Below, piece after piece: positions 3,787-40,239 of a stretch of 63,896 bases of DNA (positions are counted from its first letter, which is position 1; each line of letters starts with the position of its first letter). Made by a program: the position numbers and the translations under genes. Under the pieces are notes generated by a model, which was not told where the DNA came from, made no database searches, and saw only the letters and a list, made by a program, of their open reading frames with translations. Source of the DNA: Phascolarctobacterium succinatutens (GTDB taxonomy: Bacteria > Bacillota > Clostridia > Christensenellales > CAG-917); assembly GCA_963593735.1 (NCBI GenBank), contig CAVBBF010000004.1, forward strand, positions 1 to 63,896, in the 5' to 3' direction.

Positions 3787-3846
3787 AATTAATAATTTAA
3801 TAATGAATAATTAACAATTACGGGCGGGGTTTCACCCCACACCCCC
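3787..3846 (+). repeat. repeat family R1, copy a (AT-rich AATAATT-type run plus G/C hairpin)
   Basis: aattaataatttaataatgaataattaacaattac followed by GGGCGGGGTTTCACCCCACACCCCC. Same architecture at 12941-13002 (inverted), 38134-38193 and 38761-38807. Confidence 0.8.
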
Positions 3847-12940: not shown

Positions 12941-13002
12941 TTCGGGTGAGGGTGAAACCCTCCCGAAATTATTAATTATTAATTATTAATTATTAATTAA
13001 TC
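12941..13002 (-). repeat. repeat family R1, copy b (inverted orientation)
   Basis: ttcGGGTGAGGGTGAAACCCTCCCgaa followed by (ATTATTA)n. Its reverse complement aligns with copies a, c and d. Confidence 0.7.
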
Positions 13003-19280: not shown

Positions 19281-19346
19281 TTCAAGTCTTTGAGGACAAA
19301 AGGGGTCATACTATTTTTGTAGAAAAATGTAGGAGTTTGTCGTAAA

Positions 19347-19802
19347 ATGTCGGAAAATGACGAAAAATTGACAGATCGTTTTGCAGAGCGACTTTGCGAC
19401 CTTATGCAAGAAAACAAAACCGACGTCGGTTGTCTTTCTCTCAATCTGAACCTCAACCCCTCTGCCGTGTACAAGTGGCTGAGAAGATCGTCTTTGCCGA
19501 ATTTTGAAAACGCAATAGCGCTTTCGGACGCATTCGGTTGTTCGCTCGACTATCTTTTCGGGCTCAAAGAACTCGACGTGCAGTATGCGCCGCACTCGCC
19601 GCTATCGCCTTTCAACGAACGGTTTGAAAAACTCCTTTGCGAAAAGAAAATCACCGAGTACCGTCTCGTCAGGCAAACGGGCATATCTCGCAGCAAAATC
19701 GCCTCGTGGCGAAAAGGAACGAGTTTGCCGAGCGTTCCGAGCCTGATTGCGGTTGCCACCGCCCTCGATTTGACCCTCGACGCGCTTGTCGGCAGAGATT
19801 GA
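19347..19802 (+). CDS. XRE-family regulator with two tandem HTH domains
   Basis: Two Cro/CI-type units: FAERLCDLMQENKTDVGCLSLNLNLNPSAVYKWLRRSSLPNFENAIALSDAFGCSLDYLFG and FEKLLCEKKITEYRLVRQTGISRSKIASWRKGTSLPSVPSLIAVATALDLTLDALVG. Confidence 0.8.
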   Translation: MSENDEKLTDRFAERLCDLMQENKTDVGCLSLNLNLNPSAVYKWLRRSSLPNFENAIALSDAFGCSLDYLFGLKELDVQYAPHSPLSPFNERFEKLLCEKKITEYRLVRQTGISRSKIASWRKGTSLPSVPSLIAVATALDLTLDALVGRD

Positions 19803-21243: not shown

Positions 21244-21373
21244 AAAATAATGCGCCATTGAGATAAAGAACAAGAAAGAGGCACTTGTCCGGCAACCCTA
21301 ATTTACTAATGCGTAAATGAGTTGACAGACAAGTGCCTCTGCCGCAGTTATTTGCTCAATGGCGCATTATTTT
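21244..21373. other. long (about 130 nt) imperfect hairpin just 3' of purA
   Basis: Outer arms AAAATAATGCGCCATTGAG (21244-21262) and CTCAATGGCGCATTATTTT (21355-21373). Inner arms AGAGGCACTTGTC (21277-21289) and GACAAGTGCCTCT (21328-21340). Confidence 0.7.
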
Positions 21374-21386
21374 GCTCAATGACGGA

Positions 21387-22658
21387 TTATTTTACAATGA
21401 TGGAATCCCTCTCTGCGCCGACAGAAATATACTTGATCTTGCAATCAACCGCTTTTTCGATAAACTCGATGTACTTGCGTGCGTTGAGGGGAAGGTCCTC
21501 GTAGCGACGACACGAAGTGGTGGGGCAATTCCAACCGTCGAGATAAATGACGTTGGGAGTTGCGACGTTGAGGGCTTCACCGGAGGGGAACTCGTCGACG
21601 GTCTTGCCGTTTACGTCGTAACTGACGCAGACGGGGATTTTTTCCATTGTGTCGAGAATGTCGAGTTTGGTGAGTGCGATTTCGGTTGCGGCTTGAACCA
21701 TACATCCGTACTTGGAGGCCACAACGTCGAATCCGCCGACTCTGCGAGGACGACCGGTTGCCGCGCCGTATTCGCCGCCCGCTTTACGCAATTCTTCCGC
21801 CTCTTCGCCGAACATTTCCGCAGTGAACGGACCTTCGCCGACGCAAGTGGAATACGCTTTCATAACGCCGATTGCCTTTTCGACTTTGTGATTGGGGATG
21901 CCTGCGCCGACAGGACCGTATGCGGTGATTGTGGACGAACTTGTCGTGTAGGGATAGATGCCGAAGTCGATGTCGCGCAATGCGCCGAGTTGCGCTTCGA
22001 GCATAACGTTTTTGCCGTTTTTGAGGGCCTTGTCGAGATAATATCCCGTGTCGCAGATGTAATCTTTGAGAGGAGTGCCGTACTTATCGAACCAGTCGAG
22101 CAATTCTTCGACGGTGTACCCCTTTGCGTGATACGAACCCTCGATCGTGAGGTTTTTCCACTCAACGATGGTTTCGAGGCGAGAGCGCAAATATTCGGGG
22201 TGTAGAATGTCGCCCATACGGATGGCTTTTTTCATATACTTATCAGCATAAATCGGCGAGATACCTCTGCGAGTAGAACCGAATTTCTTGTCGCCGAGTC
22301 TGTCCTCTTCGAGGCAATCTTGTTGCACGTTGTAGGGACAGCAAACCACCGCTTTGTCGCTGATTTTGAGATTGTCGGGAGTGATGACGATTCCGCCCTC
22401 TCTGAGTTTTGCGATTTCCTTGCAAAGGTGCTCGATGTCAACCACCATACCGTTGCCCATAACGTTCACTTTGTCCTCGCGAAGTATAGCCGACGGCAAA
22501 AGGTTGAGCACAAACTTGCCCTTGTCGTTGATGACGGTGTGACCTGCGTTGTTTCCGCCTTGATAGCGAACGACGATGTCTTGCTGCTCGGAAAGCAAAT
22601 CGACCATTCTGCCCTTGCCTTCGTCGCCCCAGTTGATACCAACAATTGATGTAAGCAT
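21387..22658 (-). CDS. purA: adenylosuccinate synthetase
   Basis: N-terminus IVGINWGDEGKGRMVDLL, then YQGGNNAGHTV. 423 aa. Confidence 0.95.
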   Translation of the reverse strand: MLTSIVGINWGDEGKGRMVDLLSEQQDIVVRYQGGNNAGHTVINDKGKFVLNLLPSAILREDKVNVMGNGMVVDIEHLCKEIAKLREGGIVITPDNLKISDKAVVCCPYNVQQDCLEEDRLGDKKFGSTRRGISPIYADKYMKKAIRMGDILHPEYLRSRLETIVEWKNLTIEGSYHAKGYTVEELLDWFDKYGTPLKDYICDTGYYLDKALKNGKNVMLEAQLGALRDIDFGIYPYTTSSSTITAYGPVGAGIPNHKVEKAIGVMKAYSTCVGEGPFTAEMFGEEAEELRKAGGEYGAATGRPRRVGGFDVVASKYGCMVQAATEIALTKLDILDTMEKIPVCVSYDVNGKTVDEFPSGEALNVATPNVIYLDGWNCPTTSCRRYEDLPLNARKYIEFIEKAVDCKIKYISVGAERDSIIVK

Positions 22659-29393: not shown

Positions 29394-30548
29394 TTAAGCC
29401 ATTTGCGAATAATCAATGTATAAAGACACAGCTCTTCTTATTTGCGATTTTACGGTAGTATTTAATATTGCAAAATCACGTTCTTTATCTAAGTAGAACA
29501 AATAAACGGGCTCTATTTTTTGAGGAAATGGCAAAATATAATTTGCTCTTTTAACTCTTGAAATAATATCTTTGATAGTTCTTTCGGAATAACGTTTTGC
29601 ATTTACCAAACTATGCTTAAAAGAGTCGTACTTGCTTTCTGTTTTTGTTTGTTCTGCTTCTTTGATATGAAATAGTAAGGCCTGTGCAACAAATTCTGCC
29701 AACTTTACAGGCACCGCATTACCTATCATTTGTTCTACATCTGTTTTATTTCCTACCCATTTATAGTCTGCAGGAAAAGTTTGAATAAGCGAACGCTCCA
29801 ATGTTGTTAAAGAACGAATAGAAGGATTGAGTGCGCAAGCGTCATTTGGATGTCCTGTATATCCTTTAGGGACAGGGCGATTTACACCTCTCATTGTGGG
29901 AGCGGGTTCATCTATTGAAAAAATGGCACGTCTTGAATAATTCCTAGGATGTCTATAATAATATTCAAAATCTAAAGAATTACCAAAATAATCCCGCAAT
30001 GTGGTTTCCTTTGGGGATATATGGCTTTCAAAATAGTCTAATAAAAATCCGTCATCCTGATTTAGAGAGCCTATACAGAAAAAACGCTTACGCTTTTGAG
30101 GGACACCGCAATGACTTGCGTCCAAAACTATTTCGGTTAAACCATATCCGGCGTTTTTAAAAACTGTTCGAGCATAGGCATAGTTATTGCTGATTGCGGC
30201 GCGGTCAACATTTTCCATTACAAAAAAACGTGGTTTAATGGTTGTGACAATTTGGGCGAACGCACTCGTCAAACTAGCCCTACCTGCCTCAATACGTTTT
30301 CCTGCTTGCGAGAAATCTTGACACGGTGGACCTCCTATTATAATATCGGGGGTAAATGCTTCGATTAGTTTTACTGCATTCTCTACATCTGACAAATCAG
30401 CCTTAATAATCGGGTGATTAAAGTTTTTCCCATAGCAAGCAACGGCAACATCCCAACACTCAAAACCTGCTTTAACTTTGAACCCGGCATTTTGGAAACC
30501 TAAACTTAAGCCGCCGCAACCCGCAAACAAATCAACAATAGCGTTCAT
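29394..30548 (-). CDS. DNA (cytosine-5)-methyltransferase with a C-terminal extension
   Basis: Motif I DLFAGCGG, motif IV GGPPCQDFS, motif VI FVMENV, motif VIII QKRKRFF, motif X GNAVPV. About 75 residues follow motif X. Confidence 0.9.
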   Translation of the reverse strand: MNAIVDLFAGCGGLSLGFQNAGFKVKAGFECWDVAVACYGKNFNHPIIKADLSDVENAVKLIEAFTPDIIIGGPPCQDFSQAGKRIEAGRASLTSAFAQIVTTIKPRFFVMENVDRAAISNNYAYARTVFKNAGYGLTEIVLDASHCGVPQKRKRFFCIGSLNQDDGFLLDYFESHISPKETTLRDYFGNSLDFEYYYRHPRNYSRRAIFSIDEPAPTMRGVNRPVPKGYTGHPNDACALNPSIRSLTTLERSLIQTFPADYKWVGNKTDVEQMIGNAVPVKLAEFVAQALLFHIKEAEQTKTESKYDSFKHSLVNAKRYSERTIKDIISRVKRANYILPFPQKIEPVYLFYLDKERDFAILNTTVKSQIRRAVSLYIDYSQMA

Positions 30549-30623
30549 ATTAGCTCCCCCCCCTTCTCTTGAGTTTTAGTAAGAAGTATGCTATACTGCA
30601 AATAACTATACCACGAAAGGAGA

Positions 30624-30647
30624 TTGGCGTCAACTTATTGACGCCAA
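30624..30647. promoter_or_regulatory. perfect 10-bp inverted repeat in the endonuclease 5' region
   Basis: TTGGCGTCAA ctta TTGACGCCAA, 13 nt upstream of the ATG at 30661. An AAGGAG (30617-30622) lies just 5' of it. Confidence 0.55.
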
Positions 30648-30660
30648 GAAATCAAAATTT

Positions 30661-31713
30661 ATGGCAACAGGATTATACGGGATAAAACATTCTAATAGAA
30701 CAGTAGATGAACATTGGGGTAAAAACAGATTTAATTCAAGTTTTCCCACCGCTTTAGCAAGTTATATGTTGGAACACGATTTACCCGCCATTTATATACA
30801 ACTTGAGGACAGTTCCGACAAACCGAAAGTTATTGCAACCGAAATCTCATTGCAAGAAGTTTTTAATACGCCGAATAAGACTACAGATGATTTATCTTTC
30901 AATTTTGAAACTGTTTTTGCTCCATATCAGGATTTTTCATTTGATAGAATTGACGGTATAGATTTGGTTGTAAAAAACACCAATGGTGAGTTCTTAACAC
31001 CACTTGAAGTAAAACTGACAGTATTACCGACTGACGGTACAAGTAAACACACTGAAAATAAATGGGGTTGCGAATTGGTAATCCGTTCGGCAACAACATC
31101 GTATTGTGCATTAGGAATGTATAACACTGTAAAAGAGCGGCACCGTGAAGTTCGCGAGATATTTGAAGATACTTGTTCATCCATTCAGATGTGGGATAAT
31201 AATTTTGAAATGACTCATAAAATGCCTCAAATTTGCTCTTGTATAGATGAGTTTCAAAAAAGATTTGTTAACTTCCAAAAACCATTGCTAATGCAAACAA
31301 TATGGAAAACTCAAGGAAAATCTCCGCTTTTAGCCGACAACGCCTTTGATATTGTTGTTTGGAGCGATTATGCTTTTTCTCGTCTATTCATTGATAGTTC
31401 AAATGAGTGTTTGAATGAAATGAGTAGACCTATGCGAGCAACAGCAAGGCTTGCAAGATGCCTTTGGGAATTAAGCAAATCCGGAAAAATTAGGATGACT
31501 GATATTTATAGGCAAATGGCTTTTGGCAATCAAACAGACAAAGAATTTGCTATAAATGGAGATAAGTGGAGAAGATATGTTTCTTCGGACAGAATCGTAA
31601 CGCCATTGCTCAAGAAAGAAATAGTTAATGAGATAATAGAGCCTCAATATTTGGAAAAATTAAGTCCCGAACGTCGATTTGACCAAACATTATATTTTAC
31701 AATGAAACAATAA
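30661..31713 (+). CDS. type II restriction endonuclease candidate (PD-(D/E)xK fold); specificity unknown
   Basis: Divergent partner of the C5 methyltransferase. Candidate catalytic motif is D in IDGIDLVV followed by LEVKL. 350 aa. The family name cannot be assigned by eye. Confidence 0.6.
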   Translation: MATGLYGIKHSNRTVDEHWGKNRFNSSFPTALASYMLEHDLPAIYIQLEDSSDKPKVIATEISLQEVFNTPNKTTDDLSFNFETVFAPYQDFSFDRIDGIDLVVKNTNGEFLTPLEVKLTVLPTDGTSKHTENKWGCELVIRSATTSYCALGMYNTVKERHREVREIFEDTCSSIQMWDNNFEMTHKMPQICSCIDEFQKRFVNFQKPLLMQTIWKTQGKSPLLADNAFDIVVWSDYAFSRLFIDSSNECLNEMSRPMRATARLARCLWELSKSGKIRMTDIYRQMAFGNQTDKEFAINGDKWRRYVSSDRIVTPLLKKEIVNEIIEPQYLEKLSPERRFDQTLYFTMKQ

Positions 31714-31767
31714 GGTTTTAGGGCTATTCGATTTACGTTACTAACGCTCCGCAGTGTGGATGTCATT

Positions 31768-31917
31768 GTGCCATAGGCACTCTGATTTTCCTCAACTGCA
31801 CCTACGGTGCAATTTCATTCTCGCAGAGCGAGAATTTCACACGAGCAAAGCGAGTATTTCACTGCGCAAAGCGCAATATCGTTGTGCCATAGGCGTCCCG
31901 CCTATGGCACAATATCC
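31768..31917 (+). repeat. tandem hairpin-plus-linker array (paralog of the 38.3-kb array)
   Basis: GTGCCataGGCAC. Then 22-nt units cTGCACCtacGGTGCAatttca / ttCTCGCagaGCGAGaatttca / cACGAGCaaaGCGAGTatttca / cTGCGCaaaGCGCAatatcg. Then a 14-bp perfect hairpin TTGTGCCATAGGCG tcc CGCCTATGGCACAA. Confidence 0.8.
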
Positions 31918-32639
31918 TCTATCCCGTACAATCCTTTGCTTTGCGTAAGGATAAACCTCAATGCCCGCAACGCGCCTTCGGCGTATACGCTTCGGCAAAA
32001 AACCTCGTGCCGCAAAACTATGCGTTCGCACCCCGTGTCGATAATCACTTCGTGTTCGCCGAGCGACGCGCCTATACGCAACGAATGTATGTTCACTTCC
32101 CCTTTTTCTCTGCCTATTCCTCTGTCGACGACGACTTTGCCGAACCCTCGCTCTCTGACTATACGCTTTGCAACGGAAAGTGCCGTGCCGCTTGGCGAGT
32201 CCATCTTTTTTGCGTGGTGCGCCTCGATGATTTCAATGTCTGCGTCGGGGAAAATCTGCGCAAGTTTTGCCGAAAAGCGTTTGAGATATGCGATTGCAAT
32301 CGACATATTGCTTGCCGTGAACACGGGGATTTGCCCGCTCGCTTTCTCGATATAATTGCGTTCATACGCCGTATGCCCCGTCGTTGCGACCACAAGCGGA
32401 ACGTTGCGTTTCACCGCAAATTCGACAACTTCGCACGTTGCCGTATGTAGCGAAAAATCGACGATTGCGTCCGCGCTTTCTTTCACATCGCATACGTTTG
32501 AATATCTTGCGACGACGCAATCCGACTCGCCGCCGTCGTTTTTGTCAACGGCGATAACCTCTATATCCCCCTCGGATTGAAAAAGGGCAAGCATCTGCCT
32601 GCCCATACGTCCCGATGCCCCCGTAAGAATAACTCTCAT
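31902..32639 (-). CDS. dapB: 4-hydroxy-tetrahydrodipicolinate reductase
   Basis: MRVILTGASGRMGRQM at the N-terminus and EAHHAKKMDSPSGTAL. 245 aa. The last three codons and the stop lie in the right arm of the 14-bp hairpin. Confidence 0.9.
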   Translation of the reverse strand: MRVILTGASGRMGRQMLALFQSEGDIEVIAVDKNDGGESDCVVARYSNVCDVKESADAIVDFSLHTATCEVVEFAVKRNVPLVVATTGHTAYERNYIEKASGQIPVFTASNMSIAIAYLKRFSAKLAQIFPDADIEIIEAHHAKKMDSPSGTALSVAKRIVRERGFGKVVVDRGIGREKGEVNIHSLRIGASLGEHEVIIDTGCERIVLRHEVFCRSVYAEGALRALRFILTQSKGLYGIEDIVP

Positions 32640-38133: not shown

Positions 38134-38193
38134 AATGAATAATTAATAATGAATAATTAATAATTTTGGGTGGGGTTGCACCCCACACCCTAA
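38134..38193 (+). repeat. repeat family R1, copy c
   Basis: aatgaataattaataatgaataattaataatttt followed by GGGTGGGGTTGCACCCCACACCCTAAA. Confidence 0.8.
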
Positions 38194-38250
38194 ACGAACG
38201 CTTATTCGTAGCGCACTTATTAACGTTATGTGCTAATTCGGAAACAGAAA

Positions 38251-38403
38251 GCGTGCTTCGCACGCATATGGAAAACGGAAGTTTTGAATCTTCCACAACT
38301 GCGTCGCAGACGCAATTTCACTTGCGCCGTGCGCAAATTTCACTGTGACAAACGTCACAATTTCACGCACACTTCGTGTGCATATCGCTGTGCCGCAGGC
38401 ACA
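38251..38403 (+). repeat. tandem hairpin-plus-linker array (seven hairpins; strict 22-23-nt units at 38299-38387)
   Basis: GCGTGCttcGCACGC-atatgg; GGAAGttttgaatCTTCC-acaa; cTGCGTCgcaGACGCAatttca; cTTGCGCcgtGCGCAAatttca; cTGTGACaaacGTCACAatttca; cGCACACttcGTGTGCatatcg; cTGTGCCgcaGGCACA. Confidence 0.85.
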
Positions 38404-38407
38404 CCTC

Positions 38408-38498
38408 GTCATTCAGAGGGAACGAAGTGACCGTAGGAATCCAGCGTAGCGAAATGCGGCTTCGCCTTGATTGCCACGTCACAACGATGTTGCTCCTC
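38408..38498 (+). repeat. repeat family R2, copy b
   Basis: GTCATTCAGAGGGAACGAAGTGACCGTAGGAATCCAGCGTAGCGAAATGCGGCTTCGCCTTGATTGCCACGTCACAACGATGTTGCTCCTC aligns with 4561-4651. The closing GAATGAC arm is missing here. Confidence 0.8.
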
Positions 38499-38657
38499 CA
38501 CGATGATTGTGCGCATTTAGCGCAAGCCTGCGGCTTTAATTTGCACAAGTGCAAATGCAATCACTCCAAAAATATCGTCGTTCGGAAACCCTTGCAAGCA
38601 AGTTTCCTCACTCGACATTGGCGCAATGACAAGTGGATAATTTCAAATCTTCCGCAA

Positions 38658-38736
38658 CCCAAACGGAGTTTGGATATCATCGTGCAGAATGCACGATATC
38701 ATCACGGAGTGATATCATCGCCATAGGCGATATCAT
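38658..38736 (+). repeat. tandem hairpin array with ATATCAT linker
   Basis: CCAAACggaGTTTGG-atatcat; CGTGCAgaaTGCACG-atatcat; CACggaGTG-atatcat; CGCCataGGCG-atatcat. Confidence 0.8.
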
Positions 38737-38760
38737 TTCTTTAATAGTAAAGGAAAATTT

Positions 38761-38807
38761 CTATTTATTAATAATAATTTTGGGTGGGGTTGCACCTCAC
38801 ACCCTAA
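38761..38807 (+). repeat. repeat family R1, copy d
   Basis: tatttattaataataatttt followed by GGGTGGGGTTGCACCTCACACCCTAAA. Same orientation as copy c, 14 nt from the stop of the next gene. Confidence 0.8.
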
Positions 38808-38820
38808 ATTATTTTAGTTT

Positions 38821-40239
38821 TTAGTCTAACTTCTGGTCACCGTACTTAATTGCGCCGGTTTTGCGCATAAGTTCGCTTACGCCAAACGAGATTGCAGCAG
38901 GAAGCACAAACAAACAAAGCACAATGCCTACGCCGAGTTGCCAGTCGGGAATTTTGCCCATAGACGCGTCAATCGTGCCGAATACGCCGACAAGTCCGCT
39001 TGTTCCCATTCCGCCGCCCGAAGCGTTGCAACGAAGCCCCATAAGCACGGCGACGAGTCCGCACACTGCGCTGGCGACTATTTCGGGAACCATAATCGCA
39101 GGTTTTCTCATAATGTTTGGGATTTGCAACATACTTGTTCCCACGCCTTGCGAGATGAGACCTCCAACGCCGTTTTCTCTGAAACTCGCGACGGCAAAGC
39201 CTATCATATGCGCAGAGCAACCTGCAACCGCCGCGCCGCCCGCGATTGCGAATACGTCGGGATTTTCGAGCGCGGTCGCACTTGTTGCGATTGCCACCCA
39301 TATAGCCGCAGAGGACGTAGGCATGGTGAGCAAAATGCCCATAACCACCGCAACGAACACGCCGACGATGATTTTGACTGCCGCGCCCGCCTCGATTGCC
39401 AAAACTATGAGTTTGGCGAGCAAGTCGATAAGTTTGATAAACGGCCACGCAACGAATATGCCCGCAAGGCACATAAGCATCATTCCGAGCGGAATTAGGA
39501 TTATATCGAGTTTGGTTTTTCCTGCGTAAAGCGAGGCTATTTCAACGGTGAGAAGGGACACGACGTACGAGCCGATAGGATTGCCGACCGCACCGAAAGC
39601 GATTGTAAACGAAGCGTTTTGACAGAGCGCACTCACGAGATTGCCCGAAAACGCGCCGACCAAGCCCGTTACGGCGGCTGTGAAAATCACAAGCGGTTTT
39701 GCGCCCAACTTGTGCGCGATTCCTATGCCGATGCCTGCGCCCATAAGCATTTTTGCAATGCTTGCGATGTAACCGAGAACGTGCGCAAACGAATTGTCAC
39801 CGCACCAAGACGCGATTTGAGCGAGAATAGTGCCTGCGATGAGCGTGCAGAACAAGCCTTGCGCCATGCCCGAAAACGCGTCTATAAAGTAGCGTTTGCA
39901 GTACTTTTTGACAACTTCGAGCGCCTTTTTACCCTTGCTTTCGCGAGCGGAAAACTCGGACAAGATTCCTTCTTTCCTCTCATCGCAATCTTCCTGTTCA
40001 CAATAGGCATCTCGTTCGGCGCAGACTTCTTGCTCGCAACTATTCTCTTGCTCGTTGCAACCGTATTGCTTTTCTACGGTTTCTTCTTGCACAAGTTCCG
40101 TATCGGCGGTTTGCTCGGTTGCAAAGTCATCGCAAGTCAAAGAAGAATCTTGTGCGTTGTCGCACGACTTATCGTCAAAAACGGTGCTTTTTTCGATGTT
40201 TTTATCGTTGTTTTTTTGCATTTTTCTGTCCGTTTGCAT
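38821..40239 (-). CDS. polytopic membrane protein, PTS EIIC-like (tentative), with an acidic Cys-rich N-terminal extension
   Basis: The core from YFIDAFSGMAQGLFCTLIAGTILAQI with GAGIGIGIA resembles the EIIC_2-type family. About 110 N-terminal residues are rich in D/E/C (CDNAQDSSLTCDD...CEQEVCAERDAYCEQEDCDE). Confidence 0.4.
   Translation of the reverse strand: MQTDRKMQKNNDKNIEKSTVFDDKSCDNAQDSSLTCDDFATEQTADTELVQEETVEKQYGCNEQENSCEQEVCAERDAYCEQEDCDERKEGILSEFSARESKGKKALEVVKKYCKRYFIDAFSGMAQGLFCTLIAGTILAQIASWCGDNSFAHVLGYIASIAKMLMGAGIGIGIAHKLGAKPLVIFTAAVTGLVGAFSGNLVSALCQNASFTIAFGAVGNPIGSYVVSLLTVEIASLYAGKTKLDIILIPLGMMLMCLAGIFVAWPFIKLIDLLAKLIVLAIEAGAAVKIIVGVFVAVVMGILLTMPTSSAAIWVAIATSATALENPDVFAIAGGAAVAGCSAHMIGFAVASFRENGVGGLISQGVGTSMLQIPNIMRKPAIMVPEIVASAVCGLVAVLMGLRCNASGGGMGTSGLVGVFGTIDASMGKIPDWQLGVGIVLCLFVLPAAISFGVSELMRKTGAIKYGDQKLD

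Follow-up and report, generated by a model that had tools for sequence, protein, structure and literature searches.

The tandem hairpin array at 38251-38403 of the 63,896-nt stretch of DNA analysed here (the window) and two further arrays in the same window almost certainly belong to Gut-1 (RF01706), and Gut-1 is in all probability a dispersed repeat. Judged from sequence, the overall picture is that of a REP/BOX-like dispersed repeat at mRNA 3' ends, read from the minus strand and with a putative barrier role, and we hold this picture with about even confidence. The positions of the arrays, their parts and their neighbours are given in Table 1.

Table 1. Gut-1 arrays, their parts and neighbouring features in the window
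Feature	Positions	Strand	Description	Basis
Array 1, core	38300..38388	-	4 units of a variable 6-bp hairpin plus joint	Rfam, R1, hairpin scan
Array 1, head hairpin	38389..38403	-	TGTGCC-TGC-GGCACA	Aligns with first hairpin of the homologous L325 array
Array 1, tail module	38251..38299	-	GTTGTGG, two hairpins and TTTCTGTTTC	
Array 1, hairpin	38300-38314		TGCGTC-GCA-GACGCA, stem perfect	Hairpin scan
Array 1, hairpin	38322-38336		TTGCGC-CGT-GCGCAA, stem perfect	Hairpin scan
Array 1, hairpin	38344-38359		TGTGAC-AAAC-GTCACA, stem perfect	Hairpin scan
Array 1, hairpin	38367-38381		GCACAC-TTC-GTGTGC, stem perfect	Hairpin scan
Array 1, hairpin	38389-38403		TGTGCC-GCA-GGCACA, stem perfect	Hairpin scan
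Tail module, hairpin	38277-38294		GGAAG...CTTCC	
Tail module, hairpin	38251-38265		GCGTGC-GAA-GCACGC, then TTTCTGTTTC	
Array 2	31760..31918	-	AGGATAT, 14-bp head hairpin, CGATAT, four units, GTTGAGG, tail	Rfam, R1
Array 2, head hairpin	31882-31912		14 bp	
Array 3	38635..38738	-	Four hairpins, ATGATAT joints, GTTGCGGAAGATT tail	Rfam, R1
Array 3, units with ATGATAT joints	38659-38738			
613-bp block	38185..38797	.	Carries arrays 3 and 1	Empty/filled sites; ends from pairwise alignment
37-nt direct repeat	38158-38194, 38772-38808		Flanks the 613-bp block; 36/37 identical	
GGGTGTGGGGTGCAACCCCACCC-type repeat, four copies	3822-3844(-), 12943-12999(+), 38158-38194(-), 38772-38808(-)			
PTS_EIIC_2 gene	38821..40239	-		Pfam PF13303, E 1.8e-63
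dapB	31902..32639	-		Pfam DapB_N + DapB_C

Array 1 consists of five 6-bp hairpins with loops of 3-4 nt, joined by three copies of ATTTCAC and then one of ATATCGC. The complementary strand of the ATTTCAC joint is GTGAAAT, and on the minus strand the core reads GCGATAT-hp-GTGAAAT-hp-GTGAAAT-hp-GTGAAAT-hp, where hp is a hairpin. An earlier sequence-only reading had described seven consecutive hairpins here, in tandem units of ~22 nt with constant joints, and both the sequence and the hairpin scan confirmed this row. Five of the seven are the hairpins of the array, and the other two (38251-38294) form its conserved tail module; all seven stems are perfect. The tail is kept in the related loci L325/L328, L007 and L116, and in L131 it is present without any units. 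Shuffles ruled out a chance origin of the array 1 hairpins. The spacing GTGAAAT-N15-17-GTGAAAT was found 3 times in the window, in two arrays only, with 0.01 occurrences expected from shuffles. The density of small hairpins in the 200-nt stretch of array 1 is the highest in the window, with one tie in an AT-rich repeat tract at ~12.8-13.0 kb, and the fold z-score of array 1 against shuffled controls is -4.0 on either strand (-72.5 kcal/mol minus, -62.5 kcal/mol plus). The view that the array is not coding was likewise borne out. The element is non-coding and has a period of 22-23 nt; a coding reading was rejected, as the overlapping ORFs (38230-38430 and others) are without support.

The Rfam covariance model of RF01706 (Gut-1 RNA), which has a gathering score of 50, scores 54.9 bits at 38310-38390(-), and was the sole match at the gathering threshold when the whole window was compared with Rfam 15. 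The Rfam search proposed by the sequence-only reading has therefore returned a clear match, on the complementary strand, to an annotated family. The claim that the arrays are not a described repeat or RNA class is refuted, and the arrays are members of a family described in 2010. The RF01706 consensus CAaUGAAAU-hp-GUGAAAU-hp-GUGAAAU-hp-UGAAAU aligns end to end with the whole of the matched interval of array 1, as three hairpins with GUGAAAU joints, and in this alignment AU of one joint pairs with GU of the next, closing each stem. Array 2 scored just below the threshold of 50 (31807-31884(-), 49.3 bits, E 1e-6 for the whole window), and array 3 scored 35.5 bits at 38669-38738(-), with an E value of 4e-5 locally. 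A second model, R1, was built from the alignment of 69 non-redundant three-unit stretches. It gave 68.6 bits for array 1 at 38315-38388(-), 52.9 bits for array 2 and 33.6 bits for array 3, and its search of the window returned the three known arrays only. Other Rfam families were discarded as candidates, because nothing except Gut-1 rose above noise in a permissive Rfam scan of the window. The search for further copies by pattern and covariance model, also suggested earlier, succeeded, with a third array found in the window and further arrays in other genomes.

The description of Gut-1 was based on 43 sequences from human-gut metagenomes (Weinberg et al. 2010, Genome Biol 11:R31; PMC2864571). 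That study classed it as certainly RNA ('RNA? Y'), considered a cis-regulatory role improbable and gave neither host nor function; according to the supplementary text it was detected in no sequenced organism (PMC2864571). The seed alignment of that study has the same architecture as the arrays here, with GUGAUAU variants, upstream tRNAs or terminators and an inverted second half (PMC2864571). In Rfam the type of RF01706 is 'Gene; sRNA', and no later publications on Gut-1 were found within the literature searched. Since Gut-1 has been in Rfam since 2010 and one instance here scores above the family threshold, the arrays carry little weight as a discovery. The side results on hosts, modularity, empty and filled sites, unit-by-unit homology between loci, missing wobble pairs, loop polarity and strictly convergent pairs behind 3' ends may be of use for work on orphan RNA motifs or bacterial repeats, and they make the question 'sRNA gene or REP-like repeat?' testable for Gut-1.

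In the Rfam orientation, Gut-1 is built from a head hairpin, 3-5 units of a hairpin plus GUGAWAU joint, and a tail part. The Rfam model covers three hairpins only, fewer than the head, 4-5 units and tail present here. The head hairpin is often long, and beside tRNA genes it doubles as a terminator. In each unit the hairpin has 5-7 bp of free sequence, and the A-U and U.G pairs at its base derive from the joint, of which only GAW is left unpaired between hairpins. The units are followed by GUU and then by either a tail hairpin, as in the window, or a short centre and a second, inverted array. Such tail-to-tail pairs, with the second array in inverted orientation, occur in many genomes and always face each other: inverted joints lie downstream of 34 of 71 arrays and upstream of none (0/71). 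The Rfam model matches both halves of the paired form on opposite strands, and the centre covaries with the far end (TATATTCGCC/GGCGAATATA vs GAAATAAATCC/GGATTTATTTC).

From the 69 non-redundant three-unit stretches RNAalifold recovered three hairpins. At 15 of 21 pairs, changes on both sides were seen in 18-45 of the 69 sequences, with all four Watson-Crick types, and these many double changes uphold the earlier claim that pairing is kept while stem sequence changes. The joint-derived pairs are near-invariant (AU in 68-69 and UG in 66-67 of the 69). Watson-Crick pairs make up 96% of 1527 stem pairs, and wobble is near absent from the variable stems, with 12 G.T against 14 A.C among the same 1527 pairs. 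The aligned sequences thus indicate that pairing is under strong constraint in Gut-1. Compensatory double changes can also arise without selection, through template switching within a hairpin.

The 64-kb window has three Gut-1 copies, all intergenic. Array 2, placed at 31796-31912 by the sequence-only reading, had been described as having the order, period and joints of array 1 with pairing kept in different stems. The joints and the period are indeed the same, but the unit at 31840-31856 is imperfect, with 2 mismatches. Array 3 was absent from that reading's list; it begins ~85 nt downstream of the PTS_EIIC_2 stop, and it is kept in L126, L128, L129 and L131 with differences confined to loops. 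Arrays orthologous to array 2 lie 3' of dapB in L325-L340.

One genome per GTDB species was searched for three GTGAWAT joints spaced as in the units, which gave at least 120 loci, and true arrays were then defined as those in which the segments between joints are hairpins. Among the matches listed from these species-representative genomes, true arrays occurred at 78 loci, all labelled Clostridia. The hosts among these matches include Oscillospiraceae, Acutalibacteraceae, Ruminococcus, Eubacteriales, Christensenella and others, mostly gut/rumen MAGs. The description of 2010 was from human-gut metagenomes only, whereas the hosts in the present sample are Clostridia. A Bacteroidetes or Prevotella host was rejected, as all 31 non-Clostridia matches listed are plain tandem repeats without hairpins. 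A phage element was also rejected, with true arrays in only ~7 of 120 among the IMG/VR pattern matches listed. The 90% cluster of the histidine kinase of the window has one member labelled Clostridiales bacterium, the relatives of the window loci come from human and pig gut assemblies, and the window contig also occurs in assembly GCA_963627895.1. The host of the window is taken to be an uncultured member of the class Clostridia from the gut. Several genomes carry multiple Gut-1 copies, some of them at contig ends. L029 (contig JAZSRT010000110.1, 3884 bp) has identical arrays in direct orientation at both ends, and near-identical arrays form the ends of several MAG JAZTZP01 contigs (L044, L050, L071, L072). 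Long identical Gut-1 copies thus break assemblies.

As judged by comparison of relatives, Gut-1 copies are gained, lost, resized and copied between loci over strain and species divergence. The direct repeat around the 613-bp block is a GGGTGTGrGGTGCAACCCCACCC hairpin followed by an AT-rich run. This site downstream of the PTS gene is filled in the window, L126, L128, L129 and L131 and empty in L125, L127 and L146, which have 90-91% protein identity and only ~115 nt before a shared bidirectional terminator. In L131 the block and array 3 are present and the units of array 1 are missing. A comparison of 100 related loci showed array 1 itself in no assembly but that of the window. Relatives with dapB in the same 90% cluster have, at the dapB site, an array with five units and different stems. 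A single hairpin is exchanged in L328, the head hairpin is kept with no array in L329, and a different insertion is present in L332 and L334. The counterpart of array 1 is the dapB-site array of these relatives and not array 2 of the window: the two align unit for unit, and so do their tails. This match indicates that the arrays are homologous, were copied between loci and were kept paired. The 24 stem pairs compared show 3 compensatory double changes and 0 single changes, and every loop differs. In orthologous copies the variable columns are 6 of 20 in loops, 7 of 72 in stems and 1 of 34 in joints, and most of the 7 stem columns belong to one swapped hairpin.

Repeats of other kinds were also seen. 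Relatives and L007 share with the window a second repeat family, in which (AATTATT)n follows a GGGTGTGGGGTGCAACCCCACCC-type hairpin. Two of its four copies in the window are the direct repeat around the 613-bp block. The interior of the block (38404-38640) has more small hairpins and a GTCATTCAGAGGGAACGAAGTGACCGTAGGAATC-type motif also seen in other intergenic repeats, in L176 and L180, and it gave no Rfam match. Downstream of the PTS orthologue, L174, L176 and L180 have 3-4 tandem copies of a different ~130-nt repeat (GCGCACTATTGAGCG...CATCTCAATATTGCG). Several repeat families have accumulated at this intergenic site. Tandem 20-nt repeats in other intergenic DNA of the window (TTTGCTCAATGACGCATTAT, ~3 copies, 21343-21404; GAAAAATGTAGGA-type, ~2.3 copies, 19316-19368) could be protein-binding sites. 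Beside array 2, a restriction-modification pair at 29394-31713 (C5 cytosine methylase, minus; HindVP endonuclease, plus) lies between dapB and a 148-aa gene. L325-L338 are without this pair and have dapB and the 148-aa gene adjacent, and the pair looks like a strain-specific insertion.

All three copies in the window lie in sense behind a gene, dapB or the PTS gene, and the gene calls of the window agree with the earlier placement of arrays 1 and 2 3' of genes in convergent intergenic regions. The other flanking genes are ordinary ones, a HisKA/HATPase kinase on the PTS side and the HindVP/C5-methylase pair on the dapB side. Arrays 3 and 1 are located between the PTS_EIIC_2 stop and the first terminator-like site downstream of it on the minus strand, which is the last tail hairpin of array 1; the terminator scan found no such site between the PTS stop and this hairpin, and no minus-strand site at array 2. 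In a test for intrinsic terminators, only the tail hairpin 38265-38251 fitted a hairpin plus U-tract on the minus strand, and no promoter-like site was found before the arrays on the minus strand of the window. The dapB stop (31902-31904, TAG) lies inside the head hairpin of array 2, and the last codons also fall in the 5' arm of this 14-bp hairpin (31902-31912). The end of dapB lies within the head hairpin in relatives too, and the element therefore supplies the end of the reading frame.

Arrays start 0-40 nt after stop codons, and some lie between genes that run in the same direction, 25-100 nt before the next start codon. Many lie downstream of an already good bidirectional terminator. Paired elements often follow a tRNA gene and its terminator by 35-40 nt, with many kinds of tRNA and a fixed distance. 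Paired elements in other genomes have the 3' end of a tRNA or protein gene on their head side in 29 of 32 cases, and the far side is random (14:17); a codon-usage caller confirmed the co-orientation on the head side. By the same caller, which is home-made and gives weak evidence, single arrays elsewhere lie between tandem, convergent and divergent genes in either orientation, with ~4 sense vs 3 antisense in tandem-gene contexts. A fixed orientation to genes was rejected for single arrays, as the co-orientation given by a naive longest-ORF caller vanished under the codon-usage caller. A replication-strand bias was rejected by local GC skew. A gene-specific cis-regulator was rejected as well, since downstream genes are unrelated and 115 flanking proteins match 148 Pfam families; on these sequences Gut-1 shows no gene-specific association. 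The commonest families among the 115 proteins (L001-L120) are HTH_3 (XRE) regulators, with 6, and 23S_rRNA_IVP/Avd-like proteins, with 3, and the enrichment of these neighbours is probably chance. No neighbouring IS200/IS605 or RAYT gene was found: phmmer with an approximate query found no IS200/IS605-type transposase among the ORFs of ~220 loci, and the 25 most frequent Pfam families of the flanking proteins include no transposase or nuclease.

Because all copies in the window lie in sense where dapB and the PTS gene end, their position suggests that they would be transcribed with the dapB and PTS mRNAs. The row of hairpins might then be a structural barrier to 3' exonucleases, a role at mRNA 3' ends that comes from REP biology, or might serve as punctuation at the 3' end or between cistrons. 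The single-stranded GAA/GAU joints might be entry sites, and the tail hairpin might help termination. We put this RNA-barrier mechanism forward tentatively, by analogy with REP/BIME and BOX. The evidence on the acting strand and molecule conflicts. RNA on the Rfam strand is supported by the invariant U.G closing pair and by the sense placement behind genes, seen in the window and in paired elements, whereas the polarity of the loops points to the other strand and to DNA. For an RNA structure under selection, the near lack of G.U pairs in the variable stems is unusual.

In the Rfam orientation the pair closing the loop is C-G in 223 of 239 tri- and tetraloops. TNC outnumbers GNA by 100 to 9, and TNNC outnumbers GNNA by 36 to 1. 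The complementary strand therefore carries C-GNA-G or C-GNNA-G, in 136 of the 239 loops. This is the hyperstable DNA mini-hairpin motif, of which RNA versions are much less stable (PMC13037366). The mini-hairpins d(GCGNAGC)/d(GCGNNAGC) are known from the work of Hirao and co-workers (PMC13037366), and SSB binds DNA mini-hairpins poorly (PMC13037366; PMC3201870). The tail hairpin GCGTGC-GAA-GCACGC has the same kind of loop. The mini-hairpin differs from Gut-1 in being a thermodynamic motif and not a genetic element, and natural mini-hairpins are single hairpins at phage or plasmid priming sites (PMC13037366).

These loops raise the possibility, which we consider rather unlikely, that the active form of the element is single-stranded DNA or a cruciform, in replication, repair or transfer, where a DNA enzyme (HUH/RAYT-like nuclease, primase or recombinase) would copy it or use it as a site. 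Gut-1 would then be a mobile hairpin-array repeat of gut Clostridia that acts or spreads as single-stranded DNA, with C-GNA-G loops on one strand, convergent pairs, insertion targeted to 3' ends and a mobilising enzyme; we regard this fuller version as doubtful too. Besides the hyperstable, SSB-poor loops that dominate one strand and their C-G closing pair, the near-perfect stems without wobble excess, the facing of paired arrays (34 vs 0), the copying between loci with insertion/deletion polymorphism and the occurrence of single arrays in both orientations to genes are in favour of DNA. However, the joint places a conserved T.G mismatch at the base of each hairpin, and such a mismatch would be expected to disappear from a pure DNA hairpin, and in the lineage of the window the loop polarity is mixed. 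The GC-skew result is also unlike that expected of lagging-strand-template transposers. The absence of an IS200/IS605-type transposase from the ORFs of ~220 loci, a weak argument since the query was approximate, and from the 25 most frequent Pfam families of the 115 flanking proteins points the same way.

The Rfam type and the classification of Gut-1 as RNA and not cis-regulatory (PMC2864571) would agree with a discrete non-coding RNA gene, for example a scaffold that titrates an RNA-binding protein via its GAA/GAU-plus-U.G modules and is processed from 3' UTRs. The strong covariation fits such a gene, as do the single-stranded GAW and U.G closing pair, repeated 4-6 times per array, and the paired form, in which the centre and the 3' end covary and a terminator follows. 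We nevertheless think it improbable. Promoter space is absent where arrays begin 0-40 nt past stops or, as at dapB, enclose the stop in the head hairpin, and the minus strand shows no promoter-like site ahead of the arrays. In addition, presence varies among close relatives, with units from 0 to 5, several unlike copies occur per genome in both orientations to their neighbours, and the stems are without G.U pairs. A role as multi-hairpin terminators of transcription, or as insulators, behind genes and tRNA operons is very unlikely for the arrays: although they directly follow 3' ends, the paired ones often at the fixed distance from a tRNA gene and terminator, and although the tail hairpin of array 1 with the TTTCTGTTTC after it scores as terminator-like, the unit hairpins are followed by the joint GUGAAAU and not by a U-tract, what follows the homologous tail in relatives is CGCATAAAAAC, and there are arrays between genes of the same direction, shortly before the next start, and many downstream of a good bidirectional terminator.

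The dispersed repeat at mRNA 3' ends that we favour can be compared with repeats in other bacteria. Like REP, BIME and REPIN of Enterobacteria and Pseudomonas, Gut-1 is extragenic, multi-copy, palindromic, located at 3' ends or between cistrons and polymorphic between strains, and its paired inverted form is like the REPIN doublet. REP has a stem sequence that is conserved within each genome and a GTAG head, and in BIME the units alternate in orientation. The conserved palindrome with a 5' GTAG was not found in Gut-1, in which stems differ between units and arrays, the 7-nt joint is constant and the units run head-to-tail; in addition, no RAYT gene was found nearby (approximate query; 25 top Pfam families). 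The sequence-only reading had set the array apart from REP/BIME. This holds for membership, because the stems are free and the joint is constant, but not for behaviour, which is much like that of a REP or BOX dispersed repeat. BOX of Streptococcus pneumoniae has the structure boxA-(boxB)n-boxC with a variable number of units, is intergenic, with a high degree of predicted structure, and has no mobilising gene of its own. Gut-1 is like BOX in all these respects, with its modular order of head, variable number of units and tail. The two have no sequence similarity, and BOX units are ~45 nt long and conserved in sequence, whereas those of Gut-1 are 22 nt with free stems. CRISPR arrays have direct repeats of 23-55 nt, unique spacers of similar length and cas genes nearby, and the only likeness to Gut-1 is a regular alternation of constant and variable segments. 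The constant part of Gut-1 is 7 nt, the variable part is a palindrome of 15-17 nt that is homologous between arrays, and an array has 3-6 units. No CRISPR family appeared in the Rfam scan of the window, and the 25 Pfam families found most often in the genes beside arrays of other genomes include no Cas family, the genes of the window having been scanned only in part. The earlier picture of an inverse CRISPR finds no support, because the hairpins are homologous position by position between arrays of different genomes, which is not what acquired sequences would show. Gut-1 therefore resembles REP, BIME and BOX in behaviour without being a member of any of them, and is not CRISPR-like in any meaningful way.
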